Below, in pieces: positions 5,201 through 62,755 of a DNA stretch of 64,000 bases. The notes under the pieces were generated by a model, which saw only the letters and a program-made list of their open reading frames with translations, searched no databases and was not told the origin of the DNA. This DNA comes from Leucoraja ocellata (lineage: Eukaryota). The translations under genes and the position numbers were made by a program. The stretch spans positions 62,001-126,000 of the forward strand of contig JAWMAR010002538.1 of NCBI GenBank assembly GCA_036785375.1. Reading direction: 5' to 3'. The stretch's first letter is position 1, and each line of letters opens with the position of its first letter.

Positions 5201-6264
5201 CAGCAACACCTGCACTTCGTTGACGGTGCGGTCGAAGGACACCAGTCCGAGGTCCTGGCATGCCTGGTTGCCCAACAGAGTCACACAGTCATAGTCGAGA
5301 ACATAGAACAGGAGAGGCGATAACTTCTGCAGCACACAATTGAAAGTGGCCTTCCCCACAGGTTTCAGCACCTCGCCCCCATAAGCATGTAAAGTCGAAT
5401 GGTCTGCAGTCAGCAGCTCATTAAATCTAATCTTCTTGAACAGGCTTGTTGACATAACATTGACCTTTGCCCCAGTATCGAGCTTAGCCGAGAAAGAATG
5501 ATTGTTGACAGTAACGAGGACCGATGGATCAGGGTGTAGAACAGGTGCGTGTAGGAGTGTGAATACACTAGCATCTCCTTGAGAACTAATTGGCTCAGAG
5601 ACGTGGGCAGTGTCGAGAGAGGACTGGGAACCAAACTCGTTATCAACTTGTACCAGGTTGTTTAATACTTGTCTAGAAGCTGGGGGAAGTTTCCCACGGG
5701 ACCGGCAGGCAGCAGAGAAATGGTTAAATTTCTTGCAGAAATTGCAGGATTTTCCGTAAACCGGGCACTGCGACTGCATCGAATGCATATAATTGCAATT
5801 GGGGCACTTTTTAACAACGTGAGCGCTGGGGGGGGGAAGCTCGTCCGCGACACAGGTCTATTGTCCGAACTGCGGGTCAACAACTTCGGCCAACCTGCAT
5901 GCGTGCATGGCCTCGGTCAGAGTAAGATCTGGCTTTCTCAGTAGCTCCGATTGCAACTTCTGATCCATCATCCCCGTTACTAAAATGTCCCTAGTAAGCT
6001 GGTCAGTCATATTCTCAAATCGGCACCTCTGGGCGAGATAGCGCAGATCAGCAATAAAGCACTCAACTGGCTCATCAGGCTGTTGTTTCCGCGTAAAGAA
6101 CTTGGCTCGCTCTAAAATGCGGTTAGAGGGCAAGTCACAAATTTCAGCAAACTTCCGTAGCAAACATACCGGATCGTTGGCAGACTCCGCAGGCACTAGG
6201 ACCAGATTGTTGTCACCCTGGTCGCGGGATTGTAGGCAAAAGCAAGTGCTCTCCTCATGGCATC
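2284..6264 (-). pseudogene. Disrupted gag-pol: zinc knuckles, protease (LDTGAKV), RT (LDAKSSFWQI, IIVDDIL), RNase H (TCDASRFGLGA), integrase (TDNGQQF, PQSNGLAERAV)
   Basis: ORF fragments 5858-6196, 4745-5788, 4526-4735, 3811-4599, 3385-3771 and 2471-3388; in-frame stops at 5858, 4745 and 3811 plus frameshifts/deletions. Confidence 0.93.
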
Positions 6265-24584: not shown

Positions 24585-24859
24585 CTGTTCCATTTAATGA
24601 TTACTTCATGACGGCATGCAAGCCATGTTCCAAATTAAGTTGCCGATCTTCAGAACTAACGAGAAACTATTCAACCTAACTCCAGAACTGAAGACTGCCC
24701 AAACCTCCAGAGTCAAGTTGCAGTCAGCAGTTGGCAGGGGTTGAGCTCAAAACAGTCATCAACTGAAGCATTCAAGTAGATGGTTCTTACAATGAACACC
24801 CACAGGGCGATGGCACTGCTACCCTCCAATGCTAAAGGTTCAAGTTGAGACCCCAGCAA

Positions 24860-26095
24860 TTGTAGGCCAATTCTCATATCTCAGCAGTTAATTTTCAGTG
24901 AAGACAAACATTGATGTCAAAATTAACCAATGGGTTCAATGTTCTAGCACAACCTTTGGTCAATTGTGGAAAAATACCTTTATGTACCTTTATTTTAAAC
25001 TTGGTATAAAACTCAGGGTTTACAGGCCAGCAGCGATTCCTGTTCTCTACAGGCTTGAGATTGGGAACATTTACAGCTGGCATTTCATTGCACTGTGAAG
25101 ATACCACCAAGCATGTCCCTGCAAAATCTTCCAGATATACTGAATCAGGAATATTTATTTCCTCTCCCCAACTGACATTTTCCAGATCTGGGCCTAAAGT
25201 GCACATCTTTGGGCAGATCACATAATTCACATTAATGTCATCCACACATTACTTTGAGTTTTGTCATGGGCAGAAATTGCCACGTGGATAGAGGAAACGA
25301 TTTAAGACTGTTCTCAAAGGTTCTATGAAAAGAAATGCAATAACCCCACTTGCTTCTGAAATAGCCACGACAGTTCAAAATGCAGAAAGTTCATTCAAAC
25401 TAGAATAAAGAACATTAAAACACTGCATCAGACCACACAGTTCAGTGTAAATGGAAGAGGGAGCACACTACCCCATAAACTATCATCCCACCCAGTCAGG
25501 TAACTCCTTCCTGCCCCTTGAATCCTTTATTTTGTTCACCTTAACCTCTTACAGTGAAGAGCTCAGATTGAAATGTTTCAGGAGCTTGGTATTAGCCAGA
25601 TGAGTAACCTGACCTCTGGAATGGAGCTAAGCTTGGTCAGTACCTCTGGATTCAATGCTGTTTTAGTTTTGTTTAGCTTTTAGTTTAGAGATACAGGGTG
25701 TAAACAGCCCCTTCGGCTCACCGAGTCCGTGCCGATCAGCGATCCCTGCTCATTAACACTATACTACGCACACTAGGGTCAATTTACAATCATACCTAGC
25801 CAATTAACCTACAAACCAGTACATCTTTGGAGTGTGGGAGGAAACTGGAGAACTCCCATGAGAAAACCCATGCAGGTAACGGGGAGAATGGATAGTCAGG
25901 ATCGAACCTGGAACCCTGGCGCTCGAAGGGAGGAACTCTACCGCTGGGCCACCGAGCTGCCCCTAATTGATGTTGGTCTAGGATAGAATGTTGAGATTTA
26001 TTTGCTTTCTGTTCCAGTGAATTTAGAAGTGGCCTCATCAGTCACATCAGAATCAGAGTAGGAGCAAGTCCTTCTCGATCCTAGAGGGACTGCAC
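24860..26095 (+). mobile_element. Old RTE (BovB-like) LINE remnant interrupted by a V-SINE
   Basis: DVKINQWVQCSSTTFGQLWK...KLRVYRPAAIPVLY resembles the RTE C-terminus; 3' end remnant near 26055-26095. Confidence 0.6.
25663..25962 (-). mobile_element. Full-length V-SINE (HE1-like): tRNA-derived head, V domain, CR1-derived tail
   Basis: Minus strand starts GGGCAGCTCGGTGGCCCAGCGG (A box) and has GGTTCGATCC (B box); CR1-like tail then A-rich repeats. Confidence 0.88.
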
Positions 26096-29000
26096 AAAAT
26101 GAAAGTTTTCTTCTGACAAATATTTGAAAGGAAATATCAGAAAGTCCCAAGTCCTCACTACTGAGATGACCTTCTACTCATGTAACTACATCTTTACTAA
26201 GATATCAAGAACCACAGTGCTGGAAACTCTCAGTGGGCCAGGCAGCATCTGTGGAGGCAGAGGGATGGTCTATGTTTCAGGCTGAAACCCTGCATCTGGT
26301 TGCAATGGGGTTGAGCTTCGACCATGACAACCAACCACCTTTCGGCCTTCACAGATGCTGCCTGACTCGCTGTGCGAGTCCAGTACTTTGATTTTTGCAC
26401 CAGACTACAGCATCCAGTCTTGTGTATTCATTATGAAACCTTTCCTGACTAAAACATTACCTCTGTCTCAGCTCATCTGTTACTTAAACCTTAATTCATG
26501 GCTGTATTTCCTCTACATTTAATTATTTCAACACACTCCTGGTAGATTCCCACATTCTAGCCCCCATAAGCTTGAGATCAAGAAATGCCAGGTTCATGTA
26601 AATATTTATATTAGGAAGTGGTTTTCAATTCTGCATTGACATTGGCTGCCATTTGCTAAGTTATTTAAAATCTTTAAGTAATCTTCGGAATAAACAGTTT
26701 CAATATTTTGTCAGTTATTAATGAAAGGTCAATGAGCTTGTGGATGTCTGAGTTTACTTCTTAATTTTTTTTGGAAGTCAACACTTATGCTACCAGAGAG
26801 ACATCTACTTGACCACTTTATACTTACCATGTCCACGACCTCGTATAATCCTCCATTAGGTATTAACTAACCGAGTCTTTCTAGGATCATGAAGCCACAG
26901 CATCAACATTGTTTACTTCAAATTGCCCTGTGATTTTACCTATTGTATGTTCAGTCAAAAACTTCAATGTAGCACAAATGTTCATTCTCCTGACCAGTTG
27001 TAACCATAGTGAGAGTTTAGGAAATACTAACAAAAACGCAAACCCCATTTAAGTTGTAGAACACTTTGAAGCATGCATTATCATTCTCCACTGAATATTC
27101 TGGGAAGTAGCCATCGGGTACGTTAACTACCCTTTTGTGTCTATATGCTTGCAGCGAGAAGGATTTCACAATGTAATGTGTCATTCGGTTCATTAGTTAC
27201 AGCAGTTCACCTCCAGAGTTCAGTAATTAGTTTCCTTCTCTATCGAATCATGACCATCTTAGTTTTGAGTTCAAACCAACATACTGCAAAAACAATGTAC
27301 AAACTATCACCATGCTATTTTTTTTTAACAATCTGTAGATACATTTACAATCTTTTCTCTCTCAAGGGATAATGAAGAATAAATTAAAGAGAAACTTATT
27401 TAGCAAGTTTCCATGGATGCCATTTCCATGACATATCAACAAAAAAAAAGTAGAATTTAAGATACATTCTCAACAGCACATTTCCTTCATTTTTAAGGAA
27501 TTAAATAGGTCTAGCTGTTTGCATTAAAGCCATATCCATATGTAGTTGTTTGAGAAAACAAATTCTTCAAAATCTTCAACCATCAGGGATAACTTTCACC
27601 TATTAGACAAAGCTTTTTTTCCGGCTGACCACTGTTAACAATTACTGAGTAATCACAGTCAAAACAATGAAATTCTCATGTACGTCCAAATCATTTCCTC
27701 GAGGACTGCTGCAATAATATTGCTATTTATAAATTGCCGCCTAACCTTTCTTGAGCTTTAGGTAAGGCAAGTAATGTTACATAGAAATAAATTTTAGTTT
27801 TACAGAAATAAATTGTGTGCATTTTGAAGACCTGTATTTAATGATGACAAATCTCCAATATAGATTCCTTTTCTTAAATGTAAAATATATATTTTATATC
27901 TATAGTAAATGCACTAAGTTTGGACAACATACTTTGGCTTTCACTATCATTGTAAGGCTTATTTAGTATAACTATTAATTCCCTGTATATCTATTTGTAG
28001 TGTTGATGCTTTTAATGTGCTGTAAGGACACAACATGCAAGAATTTCATTATTTCTGTTCCAGTGCAGATGATAATACTCTTGAAATATAGTTTTCTATA
28101 AAGAACATCCATACTTTGTATGAACTTGGAATAGCAAAATGGCAGCTTAGATTTTCTGTCGACATGAAAATATTGTTTTTCTGTCAGATCATGACATACC
28201 CTGTTAGAAACAATTAAGACACTTTCAGCTGCATGCTAAGCACTTGCAATGAATGGTCTCAATAGACATTTGTACAACAGGTTTCCAAATTCAATAATAT
28301 GGTGCATTAAATTCAGAAACAGTATATTGCCAAGAGCAATAATGACATCTACTATAGTTACAATTGTATCAATATCAAACCTGTGGAAACAATCAGAAAA
28401 GACAAATGGATTGTAAAGGCCGTGTATATTGCAGAAACTGCTTAAGGAACTGACACTGCAATTATCTAATAAATGCCAACCTGGATTGATTCTTTAGTTC
28501 ATTTAGGCAAAATGTTTAACAAAAGGCCTGACATCATACAATGTCTTTTGTAACTTAAGCATCAGAACAATTGTCAGCCTTTTGCAAGGTGATAGTAGCT
28601 GCGTTGACAAGAGTTAGATTATCATAGAGTGTCCTTGTCTGCAAAGGCAGCCGTTTGCCGTCAGTAACCCAGATGCATGACACTGGAAATAATTAAGTCA
28701 CATTATAGGAAATCATTTTAGCTTGTATTGTTAAGCAAACAGATTGTTAAAAGACTTTAAACCTATTTTATTTAAATCTGGGAAATGTTAGTAAGAAAGC
28801 ATCTATCCTCCTATCTGGTTTCCTTAGAAGTTGGTGAGTCTTAAGAGTCAGCCATAAAGTGACTCGGAATATAAGGTTCCAAACCATATACGTCTGCCAG
28901 TTTATGTTCATCAACAGGTCGAACATTAGGTTGTGTCTTAACAACATTCTGTGGCTGCTATAATGACTTTCCATAAATTTTAAAATTCATTAGCTTTTCA

Positions 29001-29479
29001 ATGATCATTCAGCAACATATCCACTTACTTATATTTGGTGATTCTGCCATTGAATATCCTTACCTGGAGGATAAAGTCCAATTAGAACATGAAATAAATG
29101 GTACAGATTTAGCAATATTCCAATAACAGCAACGTGAACAAGTGGCATCAATATCCAGCATATTTGGACCTTTAGCTAAATATCCAGTGTGTGGACTCAA
29201 CTGAAATATGACAAGCTGAGGACAGGTAGCAACAAGGGATTAAATAGGATCACAAGTTTGCCTAGGGTTTCAAACTATAGATTGAAAATAGATTTTTTTT
29301 CACAAGATCAATGTTAGGAAATTGAAATTAAAAATGTATTCAGATGTTAATCACAACATTGTTTCTAAGGCCCATAATATAACACATGTCCTAGAACAAG
29401 AAACGTTGAAACCTGAAAGTATAACCAATAGGGGCAGGACACACACACAGTATATATATGAGGGCTAAGGAACATTGGT

Positions 29480-30095
29480 GAACAGAGGGCCCAAGGGGTT
29501 CAACTGCATAGGTCCCTCAAAGTGGCAATACAGGCTGATAGGGTGGATAAATTGGCATAGGATACGCTTACCCTCATAAGTCAAAGCATGCTATATGAAA
29601 GTTGGGCCATGCTGCAACTAACCTCTGACTGCAATTAGAGTACTGAATGTGCTTCTGGTTGTTCTGTCGGAAATATATGGTTGTCCTGGAGAAAGTGCAA
29701 AGAAGATTCAGTAGAATGCTCCCTGGACTGGAAGTCTTCAGTTATGGGGTGAGATAGGATAGACTGGATATGTTTTCCCCAGAGTGAAGATGGCTCAGGG
29801 GTGACCTGATACAGATATATAAAATTACAAAGGGCAGAGATAGATAGGGTAAATAGAATTTTTTTCCCATGTAGGGATATCAAAAAGAGGGCATAGGTTT
29901 AAGGTGAGAGCAAGGAGTTTCAGACATTTGAGGATAAATGTATGTTTGTGGAATGGTTGATTTCTGCAACTTGCTGCTAGTGGAGGTGGTGCAATGAGAT
30001 ATAAACCCTACAACAGAGGCAATCAAGAAAAACACAGGAAAATATATGGGTTAAAAGGACACAGACCCAATGCAAACAACTGGATTAATGCAGAT
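29480..30095 (+). mobile_element. Old degenerate CR1
   Basis: Degraded ORF2 C-terminus (ttagagtactg...ctggagaaagtgcaaagaagattc). Confidence 0.75.
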
Positions 30096-30240
30096 GGGGT
30101 GGGAGATTGCAACCTTCACATGCTCCGCCCTGTTTCAATGAATGCAATCAACTTGGTGTGCACAATCAAATAAGATCAAATAGAACAAGTTGTCCTACAA
30201 ATTTAGGCTGTGCACGCCATACGCAATAAGAAGAAGAAGT
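30096..30240 (+). mobile_element. Non-LTR element 3' end with (AGA)n tail (RTE-like)
   Basis: ...ctgtgcacgccatacgcaataagaagaagaag. Confidence 0.45.
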
Positions 30241-30242
30241 AG

Positions 30243-30727
30243 ATTAATGATTCCTGGGATGTCAGGACTTTCATATGAAGAAAGACTGGATAGACTCGGC
30301 TGGTACTCGCTAGAATTTAGGAGATTGAGGGGGGAACTTATAGAAACGTACAATATTCTTAAGGGGTTGGACAGGCTAGATGCAGGAAGATTGTTCCTGA
30401 TGTTGGGGAAGTCCAGGACAAGGGATCACAGCTTAAGGATAAGGGGGAAATCCTTTAGGACCGAGATGAGAAAAACATTTTTCACACAGAGTGGTGAATC
30501 TCTGGAATTCTCTGCCACAGAATGTAGTTGAGGCCAGTTCATTGGCTATATTTAAGAGGGAGTTAGATGTGGCCCTTGTGGCTAAAGGTATCAGGGGGTA
30601 TGGAGAGAAGGCAGGTACGGGATACTGAGTTGGATGATCAGCCATGATCATATTGAATGGCGGTGCAGGCTCGAAGGGCCGAATGGCCTACTCCTGCACC
30701 TATTTTCTATGTTTCTATGTTTCTATG
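30243..30727 (+). mobile_element. 5'-truncated CR1 LINE
   Basis: Same subfamily as 1706-6796; (TTCTATGT)n tail. Confidence 0.93.
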
Positions 30728-31779
30728 CAGATGGGCAAAGAGGTCAACAAGAATGTGGTGGGGCTTGTTTCAGTACTGTACATCTCTATTACTCAATTTC
30801 ATTTAAAGGGACCGTCCATCCACATTTTGTTCCCATCCTACACTGAATGAATGAAATGAATGAAATGGAGAAATTCAGATTTTCCTTCAATTGGTCACCG
30901 CATTAGAAGTATTTTTTAAAATAAGATAAACAGCCAACTTTGGTAAAAATACGTTTTAATAAAAAGTTTTAACCAGTGAAGACAGAAGTAACAGGCACAT
31001 TGTAACTGTATACCACACGATTGTCAAACAGGCCCTTGATACAATATTTCTACATTGGCTTTGGGTGTTGGATATTTCATTAATGAAGATCCAAATAAGA
31101 GTCCAATATAAGATATAAAAAAAGGTTCATCATTAATTATCAACAATGTCACTTTGAAGAGCATTAATACTCCACCACATTTCTAATACAATCAAGCTAA
31201 TACTCTGATTCAATACTATTTTAACATACAGATATTTACCACTTTCATTCACACCTGAAAGGGGAAAAGCAGCATCTTGGCAAAGCAAGTTGTTCAGCAG
31301 CAAAGGCATAATTTGTCAAACATAATGGAGAAATCACTCACCCACCCTTCCTGCAACTTAAAACTCGCACATTTTCTTTATTTCCTAGTTCTGGCAGCAA
31401 GTACTTGGCTTAAAACATTCATGAAAACTGAAAAAAATACTGAAATAAAACCAGTAAATTCTTGAAAAACTTAGTAGGTCAGCTGCATTAGTGCAAAGAG
31501 AAATAGTTTATGTTTCAGATCCTGGACCTTTAATTGGAAAAGAAAGAGAGAACCAAAGAGCAAGCAGAACCACACCGAGTACTCTAAGTGTGGTGATGGA
31601 GAAGATGCGGATGGGAGATGGATGCAAACAAGGGAATATATCTCAGTGAGAGGATGACCTATTGCAGCAGTTAAAGTGGTAGGCAGTCAGAAGTTCAAGG
31701 TAAAAAAAAATTGTTCCAGAAATAACAATGATTCACTTGCACTTTTTTCAATCTAGAAAACTTGATTGGAAGAAGTGCA

Positions 31780-32015
31780 AATCAAACGGGCGATTGCCTG
31801 CTTGCGTTATTGAATATTCGCACTGAGTCTGAGGACTCGGGCATCTGCAACTCTAATTCACCACCCCACTCCCACCCTGACCTGTGTCAGTGGCCTTCTA
31901 CACTACAACAACAAGACAAGACACCACAAGCCTGAGGAGCAAGGTTTAATTTTCAGCCTGAGAACATTGCATCCTGCATGACTCAATGCCGAGCTCTCCA
32001 ACTTTGGATAACTCA
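31780..32015 (+). mobile_element. Penelope-like GIY-YIG endonuclease 3' remnant
   Basis: Degraded ...NSPPHSH.DL...KPEEQGLIFSLRTLHPA.LNAELSNF. Confidence 0.65.
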
Positions 32016-33204
32016 TTCAGATGAGAACATCACACTTTTGATGGTTATTTTCTTTCTATTAGTCTGGCCTGCTGAATATGTTGGAGTATACCAGAGAATA
32101 CAAAATTACACAGAAGATACAATATTAGCACCACACTAAACATAATAGTTTATTCTGTTCATAACACAGAACAGGAGTTTCAGCCACAATGTTCATGCCA
32201 CATATGATGCCAAGTTAAACTAATCTCTTGGAACTGCATATGACCATCAGTCTGAAGGGTCTCAACCCGAAACGTCACCTATTGCTTCGCTCCATTGATG
32301 CTGCCTCACCCGCTGTGTTTCTGCAACATTTTTATCTACCTATGATCCATATCTCTTCATTCCCTGCACATTCCAGGCACCCAGCACCCTCTCTGTACAT
32401 CTTATTCAAGCTTTTCGCCTCTGACATAAAAACTATGCTCTTTGGTATTTAAAAAAAGTTCTGTCTAACCTATCCACGACTTTATATATGACTATGAATT
32501 TATATATATTTCTATCAGGTATCTCCTCAAGCTCAGATGTTCCAGAGAACACAATTGGAACTGCTACATTAGGTTATTGGTCTCACCCTAACAGAGAAAT
32601 TGCCTTCCTCCACCATCTCATCCCCCACTTTCTCCGCTACTTGAACACATTTGTTTATCTCTTTACCTGCTCTGAAGATGGGCCAAGACATGAAACGCTA
32701 ACTGCTTTGCTCTCTACAGCTGTAGCAGACCCGCTGATAGTTTTTGAACATTTTCTAATGTTATTTCTGAAATTCAGCATCTGCGATTTTTTGATCTTCA
32801 AACATCTGGTCAGATGCTAACAATAAGCACAACAGAACAGTTTAATTTCCAAATAACATGCATGTGCACTTTAACCACAAGAATTATCTAATATTCTCAT
32901 TACTTTTAAATACATTTCACCATTGTTCTTAATTTATATGCTCTCTGATGAAACACAAAATGTCAAAAATGCAATTCCAATTAACACCTAAAAAAAGTTT
33001 CATATTTTGTTATTGCACTTTGTTGCAAAAATAGGGTTAAGCCAGAAACCGTTGCCAATTCTTTCCTTTCTGTTACCAATTCCATTACCATTACCAATTT
33101 TTTCATGGGATGATTGATGATTTGCACCTTTCTTGTTTTCATTTGAAATTACAGCCTTTAGTGGCTGTATTTATGTCTACAAATGTCTTACAATATATAG
33201 TTAA

Positions 33205-33972
33205 TTGGTGGCAAGAACAGGAAGGCAAATAAGGAAAAGAGAAGGTGTAGCGAGACCTGCGTGTGCTTGTACATCAGTCACTGAAAGTAAGCGTGCAGGT
33301 ACAGCAGGCAGTGAAGAAAGTTAATGGCATGTTGGGCTTCATTGCGAGAGGGTTTGAGTTTAGGAGCAAGCAGGTCCTACTGCAGTTGTACAGGGCCCTG
33401 GTGAGACCGCACCTGGAGTATTGTGTGCAATTTTGGTCTCCTAATTTGAGGAAGGACATTATTGCTATTGAGGGAGTGCAGCGTAGGTTCACCAGGTTAA
33501 TTCCTGGGATGGCGGACTGACATATGATGAAAGAATGGGTCGACTGGCCTTGTATTCACTGGAATTGAATGAGAGAAGGATGAGAGGGCATCTTATAGAA
33601 ACATATGAAATTCTTGAAGAATTGGACAGGCTACATGCAGGAAAAATGTTCCCGATGTTGGGGGGGAGTCCAGAACCAGGGGTCACAGTTTAAGAATAAG
33701 GAGTAGGCCATTTAGGACTGAGATGAGGAAACATGTTTTCACCCAGAGAGTTGTGAATCTGTGGAATTCTCTGCCACAGAAGGCAGTGGAGGCCAATTCA
33801 CTGGATGTTTTCAGAGAGTTAGATTTAGCTCTTAGGGCTAAAGGAATCAAGGGATATGGGGAAAAAGCAGGAATGGGGTACTGATTTTAGATGTTCAGCC
33901 ATGACCATATTGAATGGTGCTGCTGGCTCGAAGGGCCAAATGGCCTAGTTCTGCACTTATTTTTCTATGTTT
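33205..33972 (+). mobile_element. 5'-truncated CR1 LINE
   Basis: ORF 33263-33520 plus CR1 3' UTR. Confidence 0.92.
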
Positions 33973-34032
33973 CCTTCAGTAATGTATTACCCCAAACTTT
34001 CTTTCGGCAAAAACAAACATGTTACATTCTAA

Positions 34033-34281
34033 GATAGACAAAAAATGCTGGAGTAACACAGCGGGACAGGCAGCATCTCTGGAGAGAAGGAATGGGTGAC
34101 ATTTCGGATCAAGATCCTTCTTCAGATTGATCCTCAGATTCCTCAGTCTGAAGAAGGGTCTGGACCCGAAACATCATTTGTTCCTTCTCTCCAGAGATGC
34201 TGCCTGTCCCACTGAGTTACTCCAGCATTTTGTGTCTATCTTCGATTTAAACCAGCATTTGCAGATTCTTCCTACACAGAA
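34033..34281 (+). mobile_element. Palindromic Penelope-derived element with hammerhead-like motifs; 12-bp TSD GTTACATTCTAA
   Basis: Inverted arms ~34033-34126 vs ~34147-34241; TSD at 34021-34032 and 34282-34293. Confidence 0.8.
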
Positions 34282-34490
34282 GTTACATTCTAACTGATAG
34301 GATAGTGGAGTCAAGGAAAGAGTGTTCACTGCAGCCCTGTTTCCACCAATCTTTCCACCACCACGCACAAGAAGCACCAAGATAGACACCATTGTATGCA
34401 AATGCCGAGAAGTGTGTTCAGCTCTGGCTGAACAACTTCTAATCTTGTGTGTGGACTTGATAAGAAGAAGAAGATAGGATAGTTGCCATG

Positions 34491-34628
34491 TAGAAACAAA
34501 GAACTGCTGGTTAATATACAAAAGGAAACAAAGTCGGAAGAAGAGTCCCAACCCAAAATGTCACCTATCCATATTCTCCAGAGTTGCTGCCTGACCTGCT
34601 GAGTTATTTCAGGACATTGTGTCCTTTC
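34491..34628. mobile_element. Penelope-derived short element with a 15-bp near-perfect TSD
   Basis: aggatagttgccatg (34476-34490) and aggatagtttccatg (34629-34643). Confidence 0.65.
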
Positions 34629-35309
34629 AGGATAGTTTCCATGCCCAGCCCATCTAGTGATCATGATGTTTATGTAATTTGGCGGTTTCCTTATTTTCCT
34701 TGCTCCCTTTGCCTCGTTCCCTTTTAAACTGATACAACTGAAATCACAAACACTGAGATCATGCTGTATGCAACTGTTTCAGACCTCTTGGATCTCTGAA
34801 TAACCAAGATGGGAGCCAGTCTAGTTGTTTACATGCCACTGTCAATTTGCACTAAGTAGCTGGTCTGATGTGAACGAATGCAAGATTGGATAAATTTTGA
34901 ATGTTTTGTTTTCAACATATGGTTCTTTAACCACAACCTGGGAAATCAATGTGACAAAATTCAAGGCAAGGATGTAAGCAATGCTGTAAATAGCACATTG
35001 AAACAAGCAGCAAGCTGGTCTCTCTTTATGATGTGTTTTGTCCATTATATATTTTGCACACTGCAAATAATCAATGTTGACAATTTATCGGGGCTCCAAC
35101 AGTTATAGGTTAAATAAAAAATCTATAGACAATGGACGATAAAGAATTACATTATTTCAATATCAAGCAGCTCCTTTCCCACCAACATAACTGTCATCTC
35201 ACGTATAAAGAAAAATTGTAATGTTAGTACTAATGATTCACCTCGCACATTCACTACCGATTTGGCCAGTTAAACACAGAGTCCATTTGTTGGAGATTAA
35301 TTAAAACCA

Positions 35310-45350: not shown

Positions 45351-46888
45351 CATAGAAACATAGAAACATAGAAATTAGGTGCAGGAGTAGGCCATTCGGC
45401 CCTTCGAGCCTGCACCGTCATTCAATATGATCATGGCTGATCATCCAACTCAGTATCCCGTACCTGCCTTCTCTCCATACCCCCTGATCCCCTTAGCCAC
45501 AAGGGCCACATCTAACTCCCTCTTAAATATAGCCAACGAACTGGCCTCAACTACCCTCTGTGGCAGAGAGTTCCAGAGATTCACCACTCTCTGCGTGAAA
45601 AAAGTTCTTCCCATCTCGGTTTTAAAGGATTTCCCCTTTATCCTTAAGCTGTGACCCCTTGTCCTGGACTTCCCTAACATCGGGAACAATCTTCCTGCAT
45701 CTAGCCTGTCCAACCCCTTAAGAATTTTGTAAGTTTCTATAAGATCCCCTCTCAATCTTCTAAATTCTAGAGAGTATAAACCAAGTCTATCCAGTCTTTC
45801 TTCATAAGACAGTCCTGACATCCCAGGAATCAGTCTGGTGAACCGTCTCTGCACTCCCTCTATGGCAATAATGTCCTTCCTCAGATTTGGAGACCAAAAC
45901 TGTACGCAATACTCCAGGTGTGGTCTCACCAAGACCCTGTACAACTGCAGTAGAACCTCTCTGCTCCTATACTCAAATCCTTTTGCAATGAAAGCTAACA
46001 TACCATTCGCTTTCTTTACTGCCTGCTGCACCTGCATGCCTACCTTCAATGACTGGTGTACCAGGACACCCAGGTCTCGCTGCATCTCCCCCTTTCCCAA
46101 TCGGCCACCATTTAGATAAGTCTGCTTTCCTGTTTTTGCCACCAAAATGGATAACCTCACATTTATCCACATTATACTGCATCTGCCAAACATTTGCCCA
46201 CTCACCCAGCCTATCCAAGTCACCCTGCAGTCTCCTAGCATCCTCCTCACAGCTAACACTGCCCCCCAGCTTAGTGTCATCCGCAAACTTGGAGATATTG
46301 CCTTCAATTCCCTCATCCAGATCATTAATATATATTGTAAATAGCTGGGGTCCCAGTACTGAGCCTTGGGGTACCCCACTAGTCACTGCCTGTCATTGTG
46401 AAAAGGACCCGTTTACTCCTACTCTTTGCTTCCTGTTTGCCAGCCAGTTCTCTATCCACATCAATACTGAACCCCCAATGCCTTGTGCTTTAAGTTTGTA
46501 TACTAATTTCTTATGTGGGACCTTGTCGAAAGCCTTCTGGAAGTCCAGATACACCACATCCACTGGTTCTCCCCTATCCACGCTACTAGTTACATCCTCG
46601 AAAAATTCTATAAGATTCGTCAGACATGATTTACCTTTCGTAAATCCATGCTGACTTTGTCCAATGATTTCACCACTTTCCAAATGTGCTGCTATCCCAT
46701 CTTTAATAACTGACTCTAGCAGTTTCCCCACTACCGATGTTAGACTAACTGGTCTGTAATTCCCCATTTTCTCTCTCCCTCCCTTCTTAAAAAGTGGGGT
46801 TACGTTTGCTACCCGCCAATCTTCAGGAACTACTCCAGAATCTAAAGAGTTTTGAAAGATTATTACTAATGCATCCACTATTTCTGGA
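45351..46888 (-). mobile_element. Young 5'-truncated CR1 LINE nested in an older plus-strand CR1 (45280-47270)
   Basis: ORFs 46393-47079, 45973-46386 and 45450-46379; probable TSD aaatcat at 45347-45353 and 46895-46901. Confidence 0.95.
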
Positions 46889-47336
46889 CCTCTGAAATCA
46901 TGAAAGGAATAGATTGAATTGAATTGAATTGAATTGAATTGAATTTCCTTTATTGGGTAAACGCACTGAGTCCTTTGCACAGAGTAGAGGAATCGAGAAC
47001 CAGAGGACAAAGGTTTAAGTTGAGGGGAGCCCAAAGGGTAACTTTTTTTTACACAAAGATTGTTGGGTGTATGGAACAAGCCACTGGAGTAGGTAGTTGC
47101 GGCAGGGACTATTGCAAAGTTTAAGAAACATTTAGACAGGTACGTCGATAGGGTAGGTTTAGAAGGATATTGGCTAAAAGCAGGCAGGTGGGACTAGTGT
47201 AGATGCGGCATGTTTGTCAGCATGGGCAAGTTGGGCAGAAGGGCTTGTTTCCTCGCTGTATGACCATGACCCACTGACAGGCACAGCTGTTTTGAGGCGA
47301 CCCATTGTGTAATCTACAATAATTATAGGCAGCATG

Positions 47337-54900: not shown

Positions 54901-55723
54901 CATTTAAGGAAAAAGGTATTTCAATGTTGAGCTTGCAATCACAACAGAAAATACAAGTTTTCAATGTGACAGATTAATATTCCCAAGCCATTAAAACAAT
55001 TGCAAATAAAGCTTGCCTTAAGTATGTACTATCTCAGCAAGCGACCTTAAACAAATTGCAGCCTAGAAGTATAATTTATCAAGATAACAGCACAAAATCT
55101 GCAAACTAAAATACCCAAGACAAGCAATTATGATGTCTGAAAATGTTGTTTAAATTCAGCACGTAAAATGGTCTAGCAGACACAATTTTGAAACTTAAAA
55201 TGCTTACAAAGAAAAAATGGTTTATGTAAAATGATTGTATTAATACATTAGGTGCCTATCCAATTACAAATCACATAACTACATATTGAAAACCTGCCAA
55301 TGTACTCATTCGTCATTCAACGAGCTTTCTGATGAAAAAAACATACACTTAAAAACAAAATGCACAACGTAAATCTGAGAATCCAACAATTAAGCTTACT
55401 GATTAAAAATATATAATGTGGTGCATCTCACTGTTGCACATGTTATTATCCCCAGGAATAGGAAATATTCGGAAACATAAGGAGGCCTTTCCATCCATTA
55501 TAGCAGTGCTGTTATATCCATTCATCTTAAGGCATTTAAGTATTCACCTTCTAATTGTTCTTTTGAATTAGTCTATCATAATACATTGTGTTCAGTTAGA
55601 AACTGAAGCAATGCGTCTAGGGTATTTGTACATGTAGAAGAGGAGCAAAAAAATGAAGGAACAGCAAATGGGAATTCGTCATAAGGTGACATCAAGTTTA
55701 TTCCATCCTCCCAGACAGCCGTA

Positions 55724-56993
55724 AGCCCCTGTCCCACTTTCACGACCTAATTTACAACCTCTGCTGAGTTTGTCCTTGACTCGTACTCGCAGCATGGTCG
55801 CCACAAGGTCGTAGGAGGTCTTCCTCATGCTCGTGAGTGGTCTCCGCCTACTCGTGGCATCAAGTAGGTCGCGGCGTTTTTTTCTAGCCTGACAAAAAAT
55901 GTCCATGAGTTAAAAAAAAGGTTGGCATGGAAAAAATCTATACTTTTTACTCGTAAGTAGGTCATAGTAGATCGTGATGCTAGTCGTAGGTAGTCGTAGG
56001 CGGTCGTAGGTATTAGCTCCTGGGTGAGAAAAAGGTCAGTAGAAAAAAAAGGTTATTTAAACAGCAGAACGTCACCTCTCTCACTCCAAGGCATGTTCAT
56101 TCATAGCTGGAGAGTTTTTGGAGAGGAGACTTGTGTTTTAGAGATGGCACCAAAAAGGCAGCAGCGCAGGGGGAAGGGCACAACCCTAAAAAGAACGGCC
56201 ATGCAGGTGTTGCCCACCCAAGAGGAGGAGTGGCAGGAGGTGATTCCGCAGGAGGTGATAGTGCAGGAGGAGGTAGCCCTGCATGAGAGACCCTTGGAGG
56301 AGGAGATCGGGTGGTAGTATATGTCCCCACCACCACCCCATCCTTCACTGCGTCATTTGAGGCAGCGAAGCAGCCCTTTCTCCTGTGTCTGACGCAGCAT
56401 CAGAGGCAGATGCCCCATTGGTAGTGAGGGAGGGCTGGAGGAAGGTTAAGCCCTACACCTTCACCAGGCAGCAGGAGGAGGACCTTGAGGAATGGTTCCA
56501 GCAGAAAGCCATCCTGTACGAAAAGGAAAATGAGGGGTACAGGGACAAGAATGGCATGCTTGCCTTCCACTGCCCCACATGTGTGCTTAAAGTTCCATCT
56601 TTTGTCAAAGCCCAGCGCCACTGTCTTCCAGTCATCTGGTGTACTGGGACAGTCCATCACATCATCTCCATTCACCCATTGAGACCTCTTCTTGTACTTT
56701 CTCTCCACCCTTGCTCTTCCCCTTCTGCCTGTCTTAAAAGGCTGCTGAAGCAAAAGGGCTACTGCAAACAGCAGTAAAACGTACATGGTCGAAGCCAGTC
56801 TTCAACATAGTCGAAGGAGGTCTTCTTCACAGTCGTGGGAGGTTGTAGACATAGTCGTGGCAGGTCGTAAGAGGTTGTACACATAGTCGTGGAAGGTCGT
56901 AGGAGGCCGTAGGTTACCGCGACCGTGATTTTTTTTAGGTCGTTTAAGGTCGTCAGAGGTCGCGATTTAGGTCGTGAAAGTGTGACAGGGGCT
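55724..56993. mobile_element. Internally deleted PIF/Harbinger transposon with remnants of both genes (MADF/Myb-like on plus, DDE transposase on minus)
   Basis: TIRs agcccctgtcccactttcacgacctaa / ttaggtcgtgaaagtgtgacaggggct; GTA/TTA flanks; plus strand FTRQQEEDLEEWFQQKAILYEK..GYRD; minus strand CPSTPDDWKTVALGFDKRWNFKHTCGAVEGKH. Confidence 0.88.
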
Positions 56994-57870
56994 TTAATCC
57001 ACAGCAATTTGCCAAAGGGTAGGCAACTAAATATCTTCTATGATAAGTCTTAACAAGGCTGTGTTCTTAGTCCCTCACTATATCTCCTATCCACTCGACT
57101 TGGCAGCAAAATCTGCCCCAATTCCATTTACAAGTTTGCAGAGGACACCACCGACATGGGCTGAATTTTGAACAATGATGAGATGGCATACAGGAAGGAG
57201 AAAGAAAACTCAGCAACATAGGTGTCAAGGTAACAACCTTTCCCTCAACGTCAGCAAAAATGAAGGAGCTGATTGATGGCTTCAGGATGTGAGACCCAAA
57301 TCAGTATCAATGATGCTTAAGTAGAGACAGTCAAGCTTCAAGTTTATAGGTATAAATATCACCATTAATCTCTCCTGGTCCAACCACAATGATACAATAA
57401 AGTACAACAATGCCTCTACTTCCTTCGAAGGAAATTCAGCATCTATATATTACTAAAAGTAAGATCTTGACCGCTTTTGACTCACTGTGATGTGATTTCC
57501 GAGGGAACGCCGCCACTTATGGCTGTCATTTTTGGCCACCTCGCTCAGAGCCCCACTCCGCCGGACTGGACCGGAGGATGTTTCCCATCGATGAAAAATC
57601 AGAGAGATATTAATGTTTAAAAAAATTTCACCATTCTCTCTGGTGCCCCTGCTGGTGGGAGGGGGAAGGGACTATAAAACCCGGAAGGGCAAGGGGAATT
57701 CCTGCATTCCAACCCGCTCGGCCCAGCTGGGATCCCTCGCCCTCTCCATCTCTACCCTCCTCTCTCTAACCCCCTCCCTCTCTACCCCCATCACCTCCCT
57801 CTCTACTCCCTTCCCCTCCAGCACTCCAACCTGCTCGACCCCGCTGAGACTCGTTCAGCCCCGCATGCTG

Positions 57871-58174
57871 GGCTCCGCGCACACAAGGAGGGCTCCAAGC
57901 ACTGGATTCAGGACTAGGGGCCCATCGTGGAGTGTTACACCCCGGCCTTTTGAGATTCCGCAAGCCCGACTTCACCTCTCTCGACGTACTCGCCTACTCG
58001 CTGACAGTGGCATCCCAGCCAGCATCAATATCACCAACTACGACGATATCCGTCAGACGGTGGGGTTTAAAAACGTCGCGCTCAGTAATGCGCTGGCAGT
58101 GACCTACTACATCCAGAAGGAGAAACACCTTTCTGGAGGATCATGACAAGGACCTGTACATCAAGTGGGAAGGC
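57871..58174 (+). pseudogene. DPP3: Dipeptidyl peptidase 3 (DPP3) fragment, intronless, with an internal deletion
   Basis: With frameshifts: [19 protein letters not shown] // [71 protein letters not shown]; recalled human DPP3 reads AHKRGSRFWIQDKGPIVESY // [73 protein letters not shown]. Confidence 0.92.
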
Positions 58175-58230
58175 TGGGTGCTGGCTCGAAGGGCCGAATG
58201 GTCTACTCCTGCACCTATTGTCTATTGTCT
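58175..58230 (+). mobile_element. CR1 extreme 3' end fused to the DPP3 fragment
   Basis: ggtgctggctcgaagggccgaatggtctactcctgcacctattgtctattgtct matches the tails at 38775-38823 and 8752-8810. Confidence 0.93.
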
Positions 58231-60721
58231 CCAAACAATGGCCAGTAGGCCTCATCCGGCCCGCCACGAGATTTTATCCGAACCGCAGCAAGCTCAGCGC
58301 AGGGCGGAGCGTGTCTGTTAGGTGTCGAGTCGATTCGAGTCAGGGTGCGGGGCGGCCCGGAGCTGCTCTTAGTGTTGTTTCTGGGTAGGTCCCTCGAATT
58401 GTCAGAGATGAGACATAACAGTGCCACCGTGAAGAAGGGTGCAATGGGGGCTTGGGGGGGGGGTTGTTTGGCGGCAGCAGTCAGAATGGGTCGGCAGCGC
58501 GTTATAAAGTGCGATCGTTCCTCTCTGCCTCCACCTCACCCTGCCTCTCTTTCTCCTCTCTTTCTGCCTCTCTCTCCCTGCCTCTCTCTCTCTCTGCCTC
58601 TCCCACTGCCTCTCTATCTCTCTCTGCCATTCTCTCTCTCTCTGCCTCCGCCCTCCCTCCCTATCTACCCCCCCTCCCTCTCTACCCCCCTCCCTCTCTA
58701 ACTCCCTCCCTCTCTAGTGAGTGGTGAGTATTGGGACCTATGGGTGAGTGGTGGAATATTGCGTCCGGGTTCCAGCCCTCCCCTGTGACGCTGCGCGCCT
58801 CCCCTACACCTCACTCTCTACCTCCCTCCCTCTCCCTCTACCCTCCCTCTCACCCTCTCTACCCCTCCCACCCTCTCTATCCCCTTCCTCTCTACCCCCC
58901 TCCCTCTCTAGCCGTGCCTGCGCAGTTGGGGGCTATGTGTGAGTGGATAGGGCGGGAGATGGGGGAAAAGGAGCGAATTAATAATATTGATATAATATCA
59001 AGAGGGGGGGGGGGGGTTAGTGTGTGTGTGTGACGTCGTAGGCCGCCCCCTCCCCCCCACGCAACCGCACGTTGAGGGGACGGGAGTCAACAGGTCCCAC
59101 TTGGTCTTGTCTCCAATAACTCTTACCGATTTCTACAAATGCACCATAAAAAGCATCCTATCCAGATACACCAACAACTCTACTTCCTTAGAAGGTTTAG
59201 GAAGTTTGGCATGTCCCCAACAACTCTCACCAACTTCTACAGAGGCACAATAGAAAACATTTTATCGGGAAACATCACAGCATGATTTTCACCCTGGCCA
59301 CTCCTTCTTCTCCCGACTCCCATCGGCTAGATGGAAACAGATGGGGGAAATGACAATGGACAAATGGAAGCAGATGGAGGAAAGCAAATGGGAGAGGTGA
59401 TCATCACACAAACCAACCTCCCTTCCATTGACCATTTATACCTCACGCTGCCTCGGCAAGGCCAGCAGCATAATCAAGGATGAGTCACCCCTTGGCCACT
59501 CCCACCTTTCCTCCCATCAGGCAAAAGGAAAAGAAGTGTGAAAATGCACATCTCCAGATTCAGGGGCAGTTTCTTCCCAGCTGTTATCAGGCAACTGAAA
59601 CATCCTACCATAACTAGAGAGCAGTCCTGAATTACTGTCTACTGAATTGGAGACCCTCGGACTATCTTTGACCGAACTTTATGGCTTTGTCTTGCACTAA
59701 ACTTCATGCATGTTATTCCCTTGATCATGTATCTGTACACTGTGAATGGCTTGATTGTAATCATGTATTGTCTTTCCGCTGACTGGTTAGCACGTAAGAA
59801 AACCTTTTCACTGTACCTCGGTACACATGACAATAAACTAAACTCAAACTTAAAACATCACAGCTTGGTTATCATCTACTCTGCCCAAGACTGCAAAAAA
59901 TGGCAGACAATTGTGAATACAGGCCAGTCCATCATGCTAGTCATCTAACCATCCATTTATCTTTACTTCACACTGCCTTGGGGAAAAAAGGCAATCAAAT
60001 CAAGGGCCATTCACGCCCTGATCATTCTCTCTTCTCCCCTTCCCCTTGGAAAGATATATAAGCTTAAAAGCATGTACCACCAGATACAAGAACAGCATAT
60101 TCCCTGATCTTATCTGGCTCTTGAATTAACCTCTCGACAAATTCCTGATCTTCCAATCTACTTTGATTTGGTCCTTGCACTTTTTTATCTGCACTTTTTC
60201 TATAGTTGTAACATTATATTTTGCATTCTGGTACCTTTCTCTTTTGCACTACCTGATGTACTCATCTATGGTATGATTTGCCCAGATAGCATGCAAAATA
60301 AAGTTTTATGCTGTATCTCGGTACACATGACAATGATAAACCAATACTAATTCAAAAAGAAAAATGAGCTGGAGAAGAAATTATGTAGGTGGATATTTAA
60401 AAATAATTACGTTATTCAAGCAACAAAGATTTTGGAGGAAATTATATTTCCAGAATGAGAGAAATAAATTAGTTCAGATTGGTAGCTTCTGGTACTAAAT
60501 GGAAGAGAAACTGAAGAAAACATAATTGGCCCAAAACACATTTAACTTCTCTCTTCATGATGCAGTCTGAACTACTAAATATTTCCATCATCTTGGGAAT
60601 ATGGTGGTGCGAGACTGGCAGACTTTCCAGACTACTGAATTTCTCTTATACCACAACACACATTCAATTCAGCTTTTCCTAGCTGTTACATAGCAGTAAA
60701 ATAAATATCCAGCAAACCTGG

Positions 60722-60856: not shown

Positions 60857-62002
60857 TGGACTGGATGGTGAATCATTGGAATTTCTGAATGATATGACAA
60901 CGGATTATCAGATTTTACAGAATTTTAGGTAGACAAAATTGCTGGAGAAACTCAGCAGGTGAGGCAGCATCTATGGAGCAAAGGAAAGAGGCAACGTTTC
61001 GGGCCAAAACCCTTCTTCAGACTATTTTGTTTTTGTAGGGAAGAAGTTGAATGGTCATAAATGTACCTTTGCTGAGAAACTAACTTGTTTTAATAACAAA
61101 TTTGGAGGCTACATCAGTTACAAACGTGGAATGAGAGTAAGAAATTTAAGACAGAACCTACTGAAATCCCAAAATTGGTTGAGCTAAAGGTTTATGCTCA
61201 ATTCAGTCATGATGATCTATGTCAACCAAAATGGCAAGAACAAATTATGCAAATATGTCTGGTTAATGATAACAGCAGAACAGCTTGGATCAGTTGCTCT
61301 CTAAATTAAATGGTTACAAGGCCAAAGTGACATGCCATGATGAGGTATGGTGTACTATAGAAAACCACCATCATTTCATAGGGTGGTGCACTGGAAGCTT
61401 ATGTGCCTTTTATTCAAATATAAGACATGTTATTGTGGTATTCAACTGAACATCCTTCCAGGCCATGCAAATTATTTTCTTGTTGGGGATGTTGCAATAA
61501 CTATTTGTCTCAACAAGTTACTGCAGTTATTAAGGCATGAAATGGCTTTCATGTTACAAATTTTATATAATTGCTAGTGTTACTTGAAATGGAACTGGAT
61601 GCAGCAATAGAGAAAGGTTCTTTACTACAATTATATTTAGCACACAAAAGGAAATAAAACTTCTGTTCTGCATAATCTGATCGGACAATGAAAAAAACTG
61701 ATAAATTGACATCCTCATGAAAATAAATTGCTTTTGAAAAGAAAGAATTGCATTCTGAACAGACAGGAATGGAACACATAATACCCATTTGAATAAAGGT
61801 GTTTGCTTTATTGTCACGTGTACCGAGGTACAGTGAAAAGCTTTTGTTGTGTGCTATCCAGTCAGCAGAGCATGCTATCCAGTCTGAAGAAGGGTCTTGA
61901 CCCGAAGCGTCTTGGTTCTTGGTTCTTGGGTCCTCCAAAATATTCCAACTGGAATTTAAACTGGAGGTGGTGAAGGGAGGGATTAAGCCAGAAAGGGTAT
62001 AA

Positions 62003-62755
62003 AGAACACACACTATAGAATTTGACATAAAACACCCCCACACAGCAGAATCAAAGTTTCCCACTGTGTGGGAAGGCACCAAAGTCAGTCTCTTCCTCCA
62101 CTGTTCCTCGTGGTCAGGGCCTCCCCAAGCCCTCCGCAGTTGCAGCTACGGGCGGCCCGATGTCCAGGACCGCTCGCCGGGGTGATACAAGTCCGACGTA
62201 TGGGCTGCGGGACGTCCTCAGCGGCGTGGACACCAGAGTTGGCCCCCTCCTACCGGAGTCGGCGGCTTCCAAAGTCTGTAGGCCGCGCCGGGTGGAGACT
62301 GCTGCTGGCGACCCTCTGCAAGGCGCCCCAGGACTCCACGATGTTGTTCAGCGCCGCTCGCATTGGAAGCTCTCCGCACCAGAGCTCCACGATGTTGGAG
62401 CAGTGGCCCAACGCTCCGGAGCTCCAAACGGCGACCCAGGTAGGCATCGCCCGCTCCGCGGTGACTCCAGCGCTGCGCCGCCGCTGTAGCAGCCCTGGTC
62501 CGGTCCCCGGTCCCCGGCAGGAAAGGCCGCTCCGATCCAGCTGGTAGGCCGCGAGGTGGGGGGCGAGGATGTAACTCGGAGAAATAGTCGCGTCCCCGCC
62601 AGGAAGAGACTGGGAAACGGTTTCCCCCTTACCCTGCCCCCCGTCCCCCACATAGAAAGTTAAAGCTTCCCCTAACACAAAACTTTAGACTAACTAAAAA
62701 TAAAAAAAAGATTGAAATACAGACTGGCTGTAGGAAGAGGCTGCTGCAGTGCCCC
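62003..62755 (-). mobile_element. Non-autonomous GC-rich retroelement related to 40565-41330
   Basis: 3' hairpin 62037-62072; shared ctccacgatgtt and tcgc.tc.ccg blocks; A-rich tract near the 5' end. Confidence 0.6.

Follow-up and report, generated by a model that had tools for sequence, protein, structure and literature searches.

The locus and its DPP3 fragment

The window analysed here is a stretch of 64,000 nucleotides from the skate Leucoraja ocellata (GenBank assembly GCA_036785375.1, contig JAWMAR010002538.1, positions 62,001 to 126,000 of the forward strand), and positions without a prefix refer to it. A fragment of DPP3, joined to the 3' tail of a LINE, is carried within a Helitron frame at 57442-59109, as had been proposed in a preliminary description of this DNA. 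The parts of the element, in order, are the following.

57442..57687, + strand: 5' portion of the adjoining Helitron, of subfamily A, beginning TC after A; compare sister locus L062
57688..57877, + strand: internal sequence of Helitron B upstream of the cargo, common to the cargo-free Helitrons L163, L171 and L174
57878..57939, + strand: first DPP3 coding segment, for residues 292-311, interrupted by one TAG stop; a loose contig end from run X14 sets its start
57940..58174, + strand: DPP3 coding segment 2, approximately residues 360-440, frameshifted, after a deletion of approximately codons 312-359 that is common to six other loci
58175..58230, + strand: 3' tail of a CR1-type LINE, 56 nt, comprising 2 extra bases, the end of the 3' UTR and a 7-nt repeat; the last 4 nt are also those of the target
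58227..58713, + strand: left part of a hAT-type non-autonomous transposon, whose terminal repeat lacks its first 5 nt; 77% identical to positions 6-505 of the free copy L133
58714..59109, + strand: Helitron 3' part, with a decayed subterminal hairpin and a CTTG end followed by T; CTTG also ends L171 and L172

Three-frame translation assigned 57878-58174 to residues 292-311 and 360-440 of DPP3, and this identity, proposed earlier, was confirmed by a Pfam Peptidase_M49 match above cut-off at 58000-58110 (44.5 bits) and by a PDB match of the same residues to positions 384-417 of human DPP3 (E 5.9e-11). Residue numbering follows the skate DPP3 protein P0002, a near letter-for-letter match to the genome's own first DPP3 exons. 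An intact relative, P0001 from L032, has its nearest named proteins in skates and rays, the best being that of Rhinoraja at 83%. The two collinear segments, the frameshifts, the single stop (TAG) and the internal deletion (approximately codons 312-359) were all as previously described, as was the end of the fragment at KWEG, which is G440 of P0002 and lies nine codons ahead of the HELLGH motif. The limits of the fragment needed correction: DPP3 had been placed from 57871, while 57871-57877 is Helitron sequence and the true start is 57878, and what follows the tail on its 3' side is not Helitron body but the left end of the hAT-type transposon. The window copy is a pseudogene fragment and displays no sign of function.

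The composite structure of the element can be read from the sister locus L062 (C1651), whose flanks are 98.4-98.6% identical to those of the window over about 10.8 to more than 14 kb. L062 holds two Helitrons in tandem, A being whole and ending in a hairpin and CTAG, with B directly after it, and the window element is a fusion of these two by a deletion of approximately 1.65 kb between them. L062 also carries a deletion of its own that spans the tail site and hence gives no help in dating the tail. Free copies of the hAT-type transposon have terminal inverted repeats, flanked by an exact 8-bp target-site duplication (TSD) in L133 and L145 and by one matching at 7/8 bases in L124; the right end of a further free copy, L131, was looked for and not found.

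Elsewhere in the window, a repeat at 55720-57000, just upstream of the Helitron's host LINE, combines short tandem repeats with long, imperfectly inverted ends and looks like a non-autonomous DNA transposon. A fragmented, Gypsy-like LTR retrotransposon pol, in the order protease, RT, RNase H and integrase, occupies 2471-5857 (-), and a weak match to the PARP catalytic domain, possibly a host exon, was seen at 61549-62145 (-; 21 bits against a cut-off of 26.7).

A family of Helitrons with DPP3 cargo

Genome searches, whose counts are lower bounds, placed DPP3 pieces at 40 places, and the 39 loci fetched reduce to 26 independent sites once 13 flank-sharing pairs (93-98% identity) are merged; automatic clustering gave 24 sites, and one of its five-locus clusters, linked only by shared LINE sequence, was split to give 26. 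Members of these pairs, e.g. on C107, C44, C279, C14, C66, C5 and C1564, often share a contig, at distances of 0.1-1 Mb and frequently in inverted orientation, and may be alleles or haplotypes scaffolded together or segmental duplications. A Helitron end or internal piece adjoins DPP3 in 34 of the 38 loci checked, the remaining four being two with a hAT piece only and two with neither. The occurrence of DPP3 cargo at 26 or more independent sites bears out the earlier suggestion that a rolling-circle element had amplified it.

The ends of the copies are those of Helitrons in varying states of decay. The window element starts with TC after A57441, and most family copies that keep a 5' end also start with TC, a few starting with TT or lacking it at tandem joins. 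CTAG 3' ends were found in L006, L012, L013, L017-L019, L022, L073 and L115, with a 7-bp hairpin stem in L022, while the window ends in CTTG rather than CTRR, a decayed form also seen in L171 and L172. The hairpin of the window copy folded no better than shuffled sequences (z 0.45); the values for L022 and L163 were z -1.68 and 0.91. Two free CR1 copies provide a paralogous empty site for L115, which had inserted between A and T with neither duplication nor change of length; L115 was the only one of six elements tested for which an empty site was found. None was found for the window copy, whose host repeat seems 2 nt short at the right junction.

Cargo-free Helitrons with the same 5' part exist, L163 retaining both ends, and neither DPP3 nor the cargo flank sequence was detected in any of the 13 such loci. 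The genome holds 120 matches to the Helitron Rep domain (Helitron_like_N), including one long frame with both Rep and PIF1 domains. All three Rep/helicase loci examined have 3' ends like those of the DPP3 family and 5' ends that do not match, and we infer that the DPP3 Helitrons were mobilised in trans by such elements. The many near-identical Rep matches suggest that Helitron activity may have been recent. Open frames of 1520-1851 codons with Rep and helicase on C2974, C2153 and C168 (L101-L107) are bordered by short Helitron ends arranged in tandem.

The Helitron/DPP3 and DPP3/hAT junctions were also met in contig loose ends of sequencing runs X1, X2 and X6, which are labelled as three organisms, and joints in X2 and X6 fit the window copy's form of the internal deletion; the family is thus likely to be older than the split of those organisms. 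Two further loci show DPP3 pieces joined to a different, GC-rich repeat (L055:5152-5367, residues 463-534, and L061:4605-5105, residues 331-487). In L055 the DPP3 piece and the Helitron 3' end face opposite ways, pointing to a rearrangement or to capture for a second time.

Spliced origin of the cargo

The parent DPP3 gene was located at G000:C313, from C313:1240830, where six coding exons with canonical GT/AG ends run to K266 (residues 1-90, 91-120, 121-166, 167-191, 192-222 and 223-266). A GT donor follows K266, and the gene breaks off after exon 7 at a 200-N gap (C313:1255578-1255777, L065). Exons for residues 267-727 were not found by tblastn over C313:1.23-1.33 Mb, with a 55-aa C-terminal query or with a 531-nt DNA query, a result which bears on the assembly and does not show that they are absent from the animal; residues 673-727 had no match in the genome. 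Two places that had been considered as parent exons, at 3.87 and 3.93 Mb of C3, were rejected, both being remnants of the cargo. A parent without introns across the region of the fragment had been named beforehand as a finding against an RNA origin; up to K266 the gene is not intronless, and its introns are seen.

Three copies with the same Helitron 5' end, L073, L074 and L075, carry residues 232-291 in a piece that runs uninterrupted over the position of the intron after K266 and is 86-89% identical to parent exon 7. Since the parent has introns and these sister copies cross the 266/267 junction, the cargo is spliced, and because L075 joins the 232-291 piece to residues 372-426 of the shared cargo, the whole cargo would be mRNA-derived. 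Introns probably also underlie the window's own segment (292-440) in the parent. No intron starts were seen among the contig loose ends listed, and the indels of 119 DPP3 proteins, grouped at the known 5' boundaries and around 461-486, mark nothing in 279-443 and speak neither for nor against the three exon junctions proposed earlier. Among the usual hallmarks of a retrocopy, poly(A) and TSD are absent, and the cargo breaks off in a fold-back at codon 672, short of the stop codon.

The CR1 tail as a probable late insertion in a single copy

The tail had been given as some 55 nt of a CR1 3' end, in agreement with the 56 nt at 58175-58230, which contain two and a bit copies of the 7-nt repeat. 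We take it to belong to the CR1 clade on the strength of a C-terminal motif. The same tail follows an ORF2 C-terminus in L050, another (45416-45374, -) lies downstream of an RVT_1 frame (46393-47193, -), and 56 nt does not suffice to distinguish a LINE from a SINE ending in the same tail. SINEs of this kind occur in sharks and rays. Eight further copies of the tail are present in the 64-kb window, and the tail sequence drew 24,636-34,688 contigs per sequencing run; free tails thus occur about every 8 kb, to judge from the window, so that one tail among 39 elements is unremarkable. Six closely spaced matches at G000:C2364:104119-104713 form a tandem array of the tail.

The preliminary description had explained the DPP3/tail junction by a CR1 reverse transcriptase that began on CR1 RNA and switched to DPP3 mRNA, the chimera then being received or captured, and perhaps amplified, by a rolling-circle element. 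The two parts do lie in the same orientation, the tail has kept its natural 3' end, and GGC stands before it in this copy as it does in free CR1 ends. The GGC microhomology described earlier is not clean, the match being interrupted by two extra bases (58175-58176) before the tail. The same description had itself named DPP3-bearing Helitron copies without the tail as evidence against such a switch, and such copies exist: all 17 other loci that span the junction, at 11 independent sites, lack the tail and continue into the next DPP3 codons, most of them running through HELLGH to the hAT end. The template switch is rejected on this ground. No further copy with the same DPP3/CR1 junction was found among these 17; the same internal deletion was found at six loci. 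Older cargo also extends to codon 672, the 3' junction of the tail sits inside the hAT terminal repeat, and the cargo has diverged further from its relatives than the tail has from its own, and we consider a template switch extremely improbable.

The position and relative age of the tail instead suggest that it came late. Of the 14 loci measured, 12 have 78-80 nt and two have 65 nt between GGC and the following conserved hAT bases; the window copy has 56 nt, its tail replacing 76 nt, namely 71 nt of DPP3, in which the HELLGH codons lay, and 5 nt from the tip of the hAT end. The deletion of codons 312-359 is also present in six tail-free loci, and on a tree of the cargo (18 sequences, 444 of 983 columns, midpoint root) the window copy falls in a branch with 100/99 support together with eight tail-free copies; the deletion group needs two changes rather than one on this tree, though it may have had a single origin. 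Cargo identity is 83.6-89.8% to 15 of 17 relatives, the 70% of L076/L077 probably being low from their own deletions, and that of the tail to its best free matches is 96-98%. As it takes out both DPP3 sequence and the tip of a hAT end which, in sister copies, lies behind the cargo, the tail is best read as the last event, and it is likely to be an ordinary 5'-truncated insertion with target deletion.

Such a junction might also be produced by an assembly that chimerically joined a Helitron copy to a CR1 end, given that the sister locus does not cover it and that the contig is small. A 66-nt contig of run X1 is, however, identical to 58139-58204, and a 30-nt loose end shows the same DPP3/tail junction; both are under the bar of 31 letters a side and X1 is possibly the source sample, and we regard an assembly artefact as highly improbable.

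If the tail arrived late, it could owe its place to the repair of a double-strand break, with a genomic CR1 or tail-sharing SINE as donor, rather than to target-primed reverse transcription. The site is replaced and not duplicated, and no TSD was found around the chimera, as had been reported; short matches occur at both junctions, the last four bases of the tail also being those of the hAT end and two extra bases following GGC on the 5' side, and donors lie about every 8 kb. Repair is nevertheless unlikely: the insert ends exactly at the natural repeat tail with no donor flank, and 3' matches, 5' microhomology, extra 5' bases and long target-site truncations are all described for LINE inserts in the available text of PMC4245944. 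The available part of PMC13343379 contains nothing on LINE tails.

Fold-back structure and entry of the cargo

Combining the copies, the oldest cargo consists of sense codons 292-672, then antisense codons 291-232, then approximately 200 nt of non-Helitron DNA. This flank, partly a common repeat, adjoins the 5' end of the cDNA in the three copies that keep it. The arms of the fold-back abut exactly at codon 291/292 in a contig of run X14 (RNA by our guess), and a 5-nt inverted match joins codon 672 to codon 292. A further palindromic repeat is nested in the cargo flank of L073. Twin priming predicts a 5'-to-5' inner junction, and it was rejected for the fold-back, the inner junction here being 3'-to-3'; a simple inversion was also rejected, the reciprocal junction being Helitron sequence. 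The abutting arms would be accounted for by a D-loop whose new strand turned back onto the displaced one, as they would by direct uptake of RNA.

Two routes of entry have to be weighed, namely capture of an existing processed pseudogene by the Helitron and synthesis of the DPP3 cDNA in place within it, by retroposition or RNA-templated break repair. The second has several points in its favour, as cargo-free progenitors exist, the arms meet exactly at codon 291/292, and a search for a free source retrocopy found none, the 5' flank returning only the three cargo copies and the common repeat. L1 ORF1-like domains are also present (38 weak matches in the genome), so that a relaxed LINE is available and CR1 is not needed. 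Against it, poly(A) and TSD are both lacking, the cDNA breaks off at codon 672 without reaching the stop codon, approximately 200 nt of non-Helitron DNA lies at its 5' end in the three copies keeping it, and none of four cargo-bearing copies compared with the progenitor has retained the internal segment that the progenitor carries beyond the junction. Given the lack of poly(A) and TSD and the 200 nt of foreign DNA, capture of a processed pseudogene would be somewhat likelier than direct retroposition, and in-place synthesis is a tentative second choice. A special form of the latter, in which the fold-back is the footprint of direct uptake of mRNA by the Helitron, with cDNA made at a break and the second strand switching to the unread 5' part of the RNA, seems doubtful; if true, it would mean that, in a vertebrate rich in CR1, a rolling-circle element had captured sequence at the level of RNA.

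Proposed history of the window copy

The window element is very probably a decayed non-autonomous skate Helitron copy with an intron-free DPP3 fragment, the CR1 tail being most likely a late insertion into this one copy. Its history begins with a cargo-free Helitron of approximately 1.3 kb, of the kind still present in the genome, which then gained DNA derived from spliced DPP3 mRNA, as the sister copies that cross the splice junction show. A hAT element presumably inserted after codon 464, with loss of the downstream cargo in the main subfamily; the junction itself is observed, and its place in this order is the probable one. Rep and helicase acting in trans may then have spread the element to at least 26 sites, codons 312-359 being deleted in one branch; the copies are on record, and the enzyme is the putative part. 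Later, a nick in the hAT end is the likely place where CR1 RNA was reverse-transcribed, with priming through the 4-nt match to the repeat tail, and synthesis would have stopped after approximately 55 nt with the loss of 76 nt of target. Finally, as the sister locus shows, a deletion fused the window copy to the adjacent Helitron. The two-step route of the preliminary description thus stands as regards an mRNA copy followed by rolling-circle amplification, and falls, on the 17 of 17 tail-free copies, as regards the switch of a CR1 reverse transcriptase onto DPP3 mRNA.

Significance and relation to known systems

These findings extend the amplification of retrocopies by Helitrons from bats to cartilaginous fish and provide a small family whose history can be put in order step by step. 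They also show that a LINE tail beside an mRNA fragment is no evidence for template switching before paralogues have been checked. For annotation, the approximately 40 DPP3 matches in this assembly are transposon cargo, while the 3' half of the real gene is missing, a combination that could mislead. If the source locus were found, the fold-back junction could separate models of Helitron capture. Literature searches found no paper linking a Helitron with DPP3 and nothing usable on skate Helitrons or DPP3 exon maps.

Chimeric retrocopies of U6 and L1, made by template switching, arise in one integration with one shared TSD, and their empty site has no RNA-derived sequence. The skate junction resembles them in having cellular RNA sequence 5' and a LINE 3' end 3' in the same orientation, and differs in that its 'empty' state already contains DPP3 sequence, and more. 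For the tail alone, the closer likeness is to the LINE inserts in the available text of PMC4245944, which include 5'-truncated inserts of the L2/CR1 type that show, in place of a TSD, a loss of target exceeding 20 bp, and that have extra bases at the 5' junction. Those inserts are new ones in cultured cells (ZfL2-1, ZfL2-2 and L1), the majority with short TSDs, whereas the skate tail is one old genomic event read from paralogues.

For the element as a whole, the nearest system is the bat Helibat family, in which Thomas et al. (2014, PMC4224331) found that Helitrons amplify retrocopies. As far as the available text goes, both are non-autonomous vertebrate Helitrons with intron-less mRNA-derived fragments and cargo-free progenitors, and both show sequential acquisitions, nested transposons and compound elements made of two neighbouring Helitrons. 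The skate case differs in its host, a cartilaginous fish whose commonest tail here is CR1-type, in its small copy number, and in a cargo that is an internal coding fragment with a fold-back and no intact frame in the window copy. By the criteria of Thomas et al., as set out in the same text, a cargo without poly(A) or TSD belongs with the 'captured retrogene' class, e.g. TACC3, and not with the four cases of retroposition into the Helitron, which argues for the capture of an existing retrocopy in the skate as well. The process repeats one already described in bats and is not a new way of making gene copies, and the CR1 part of the story is ordinary.
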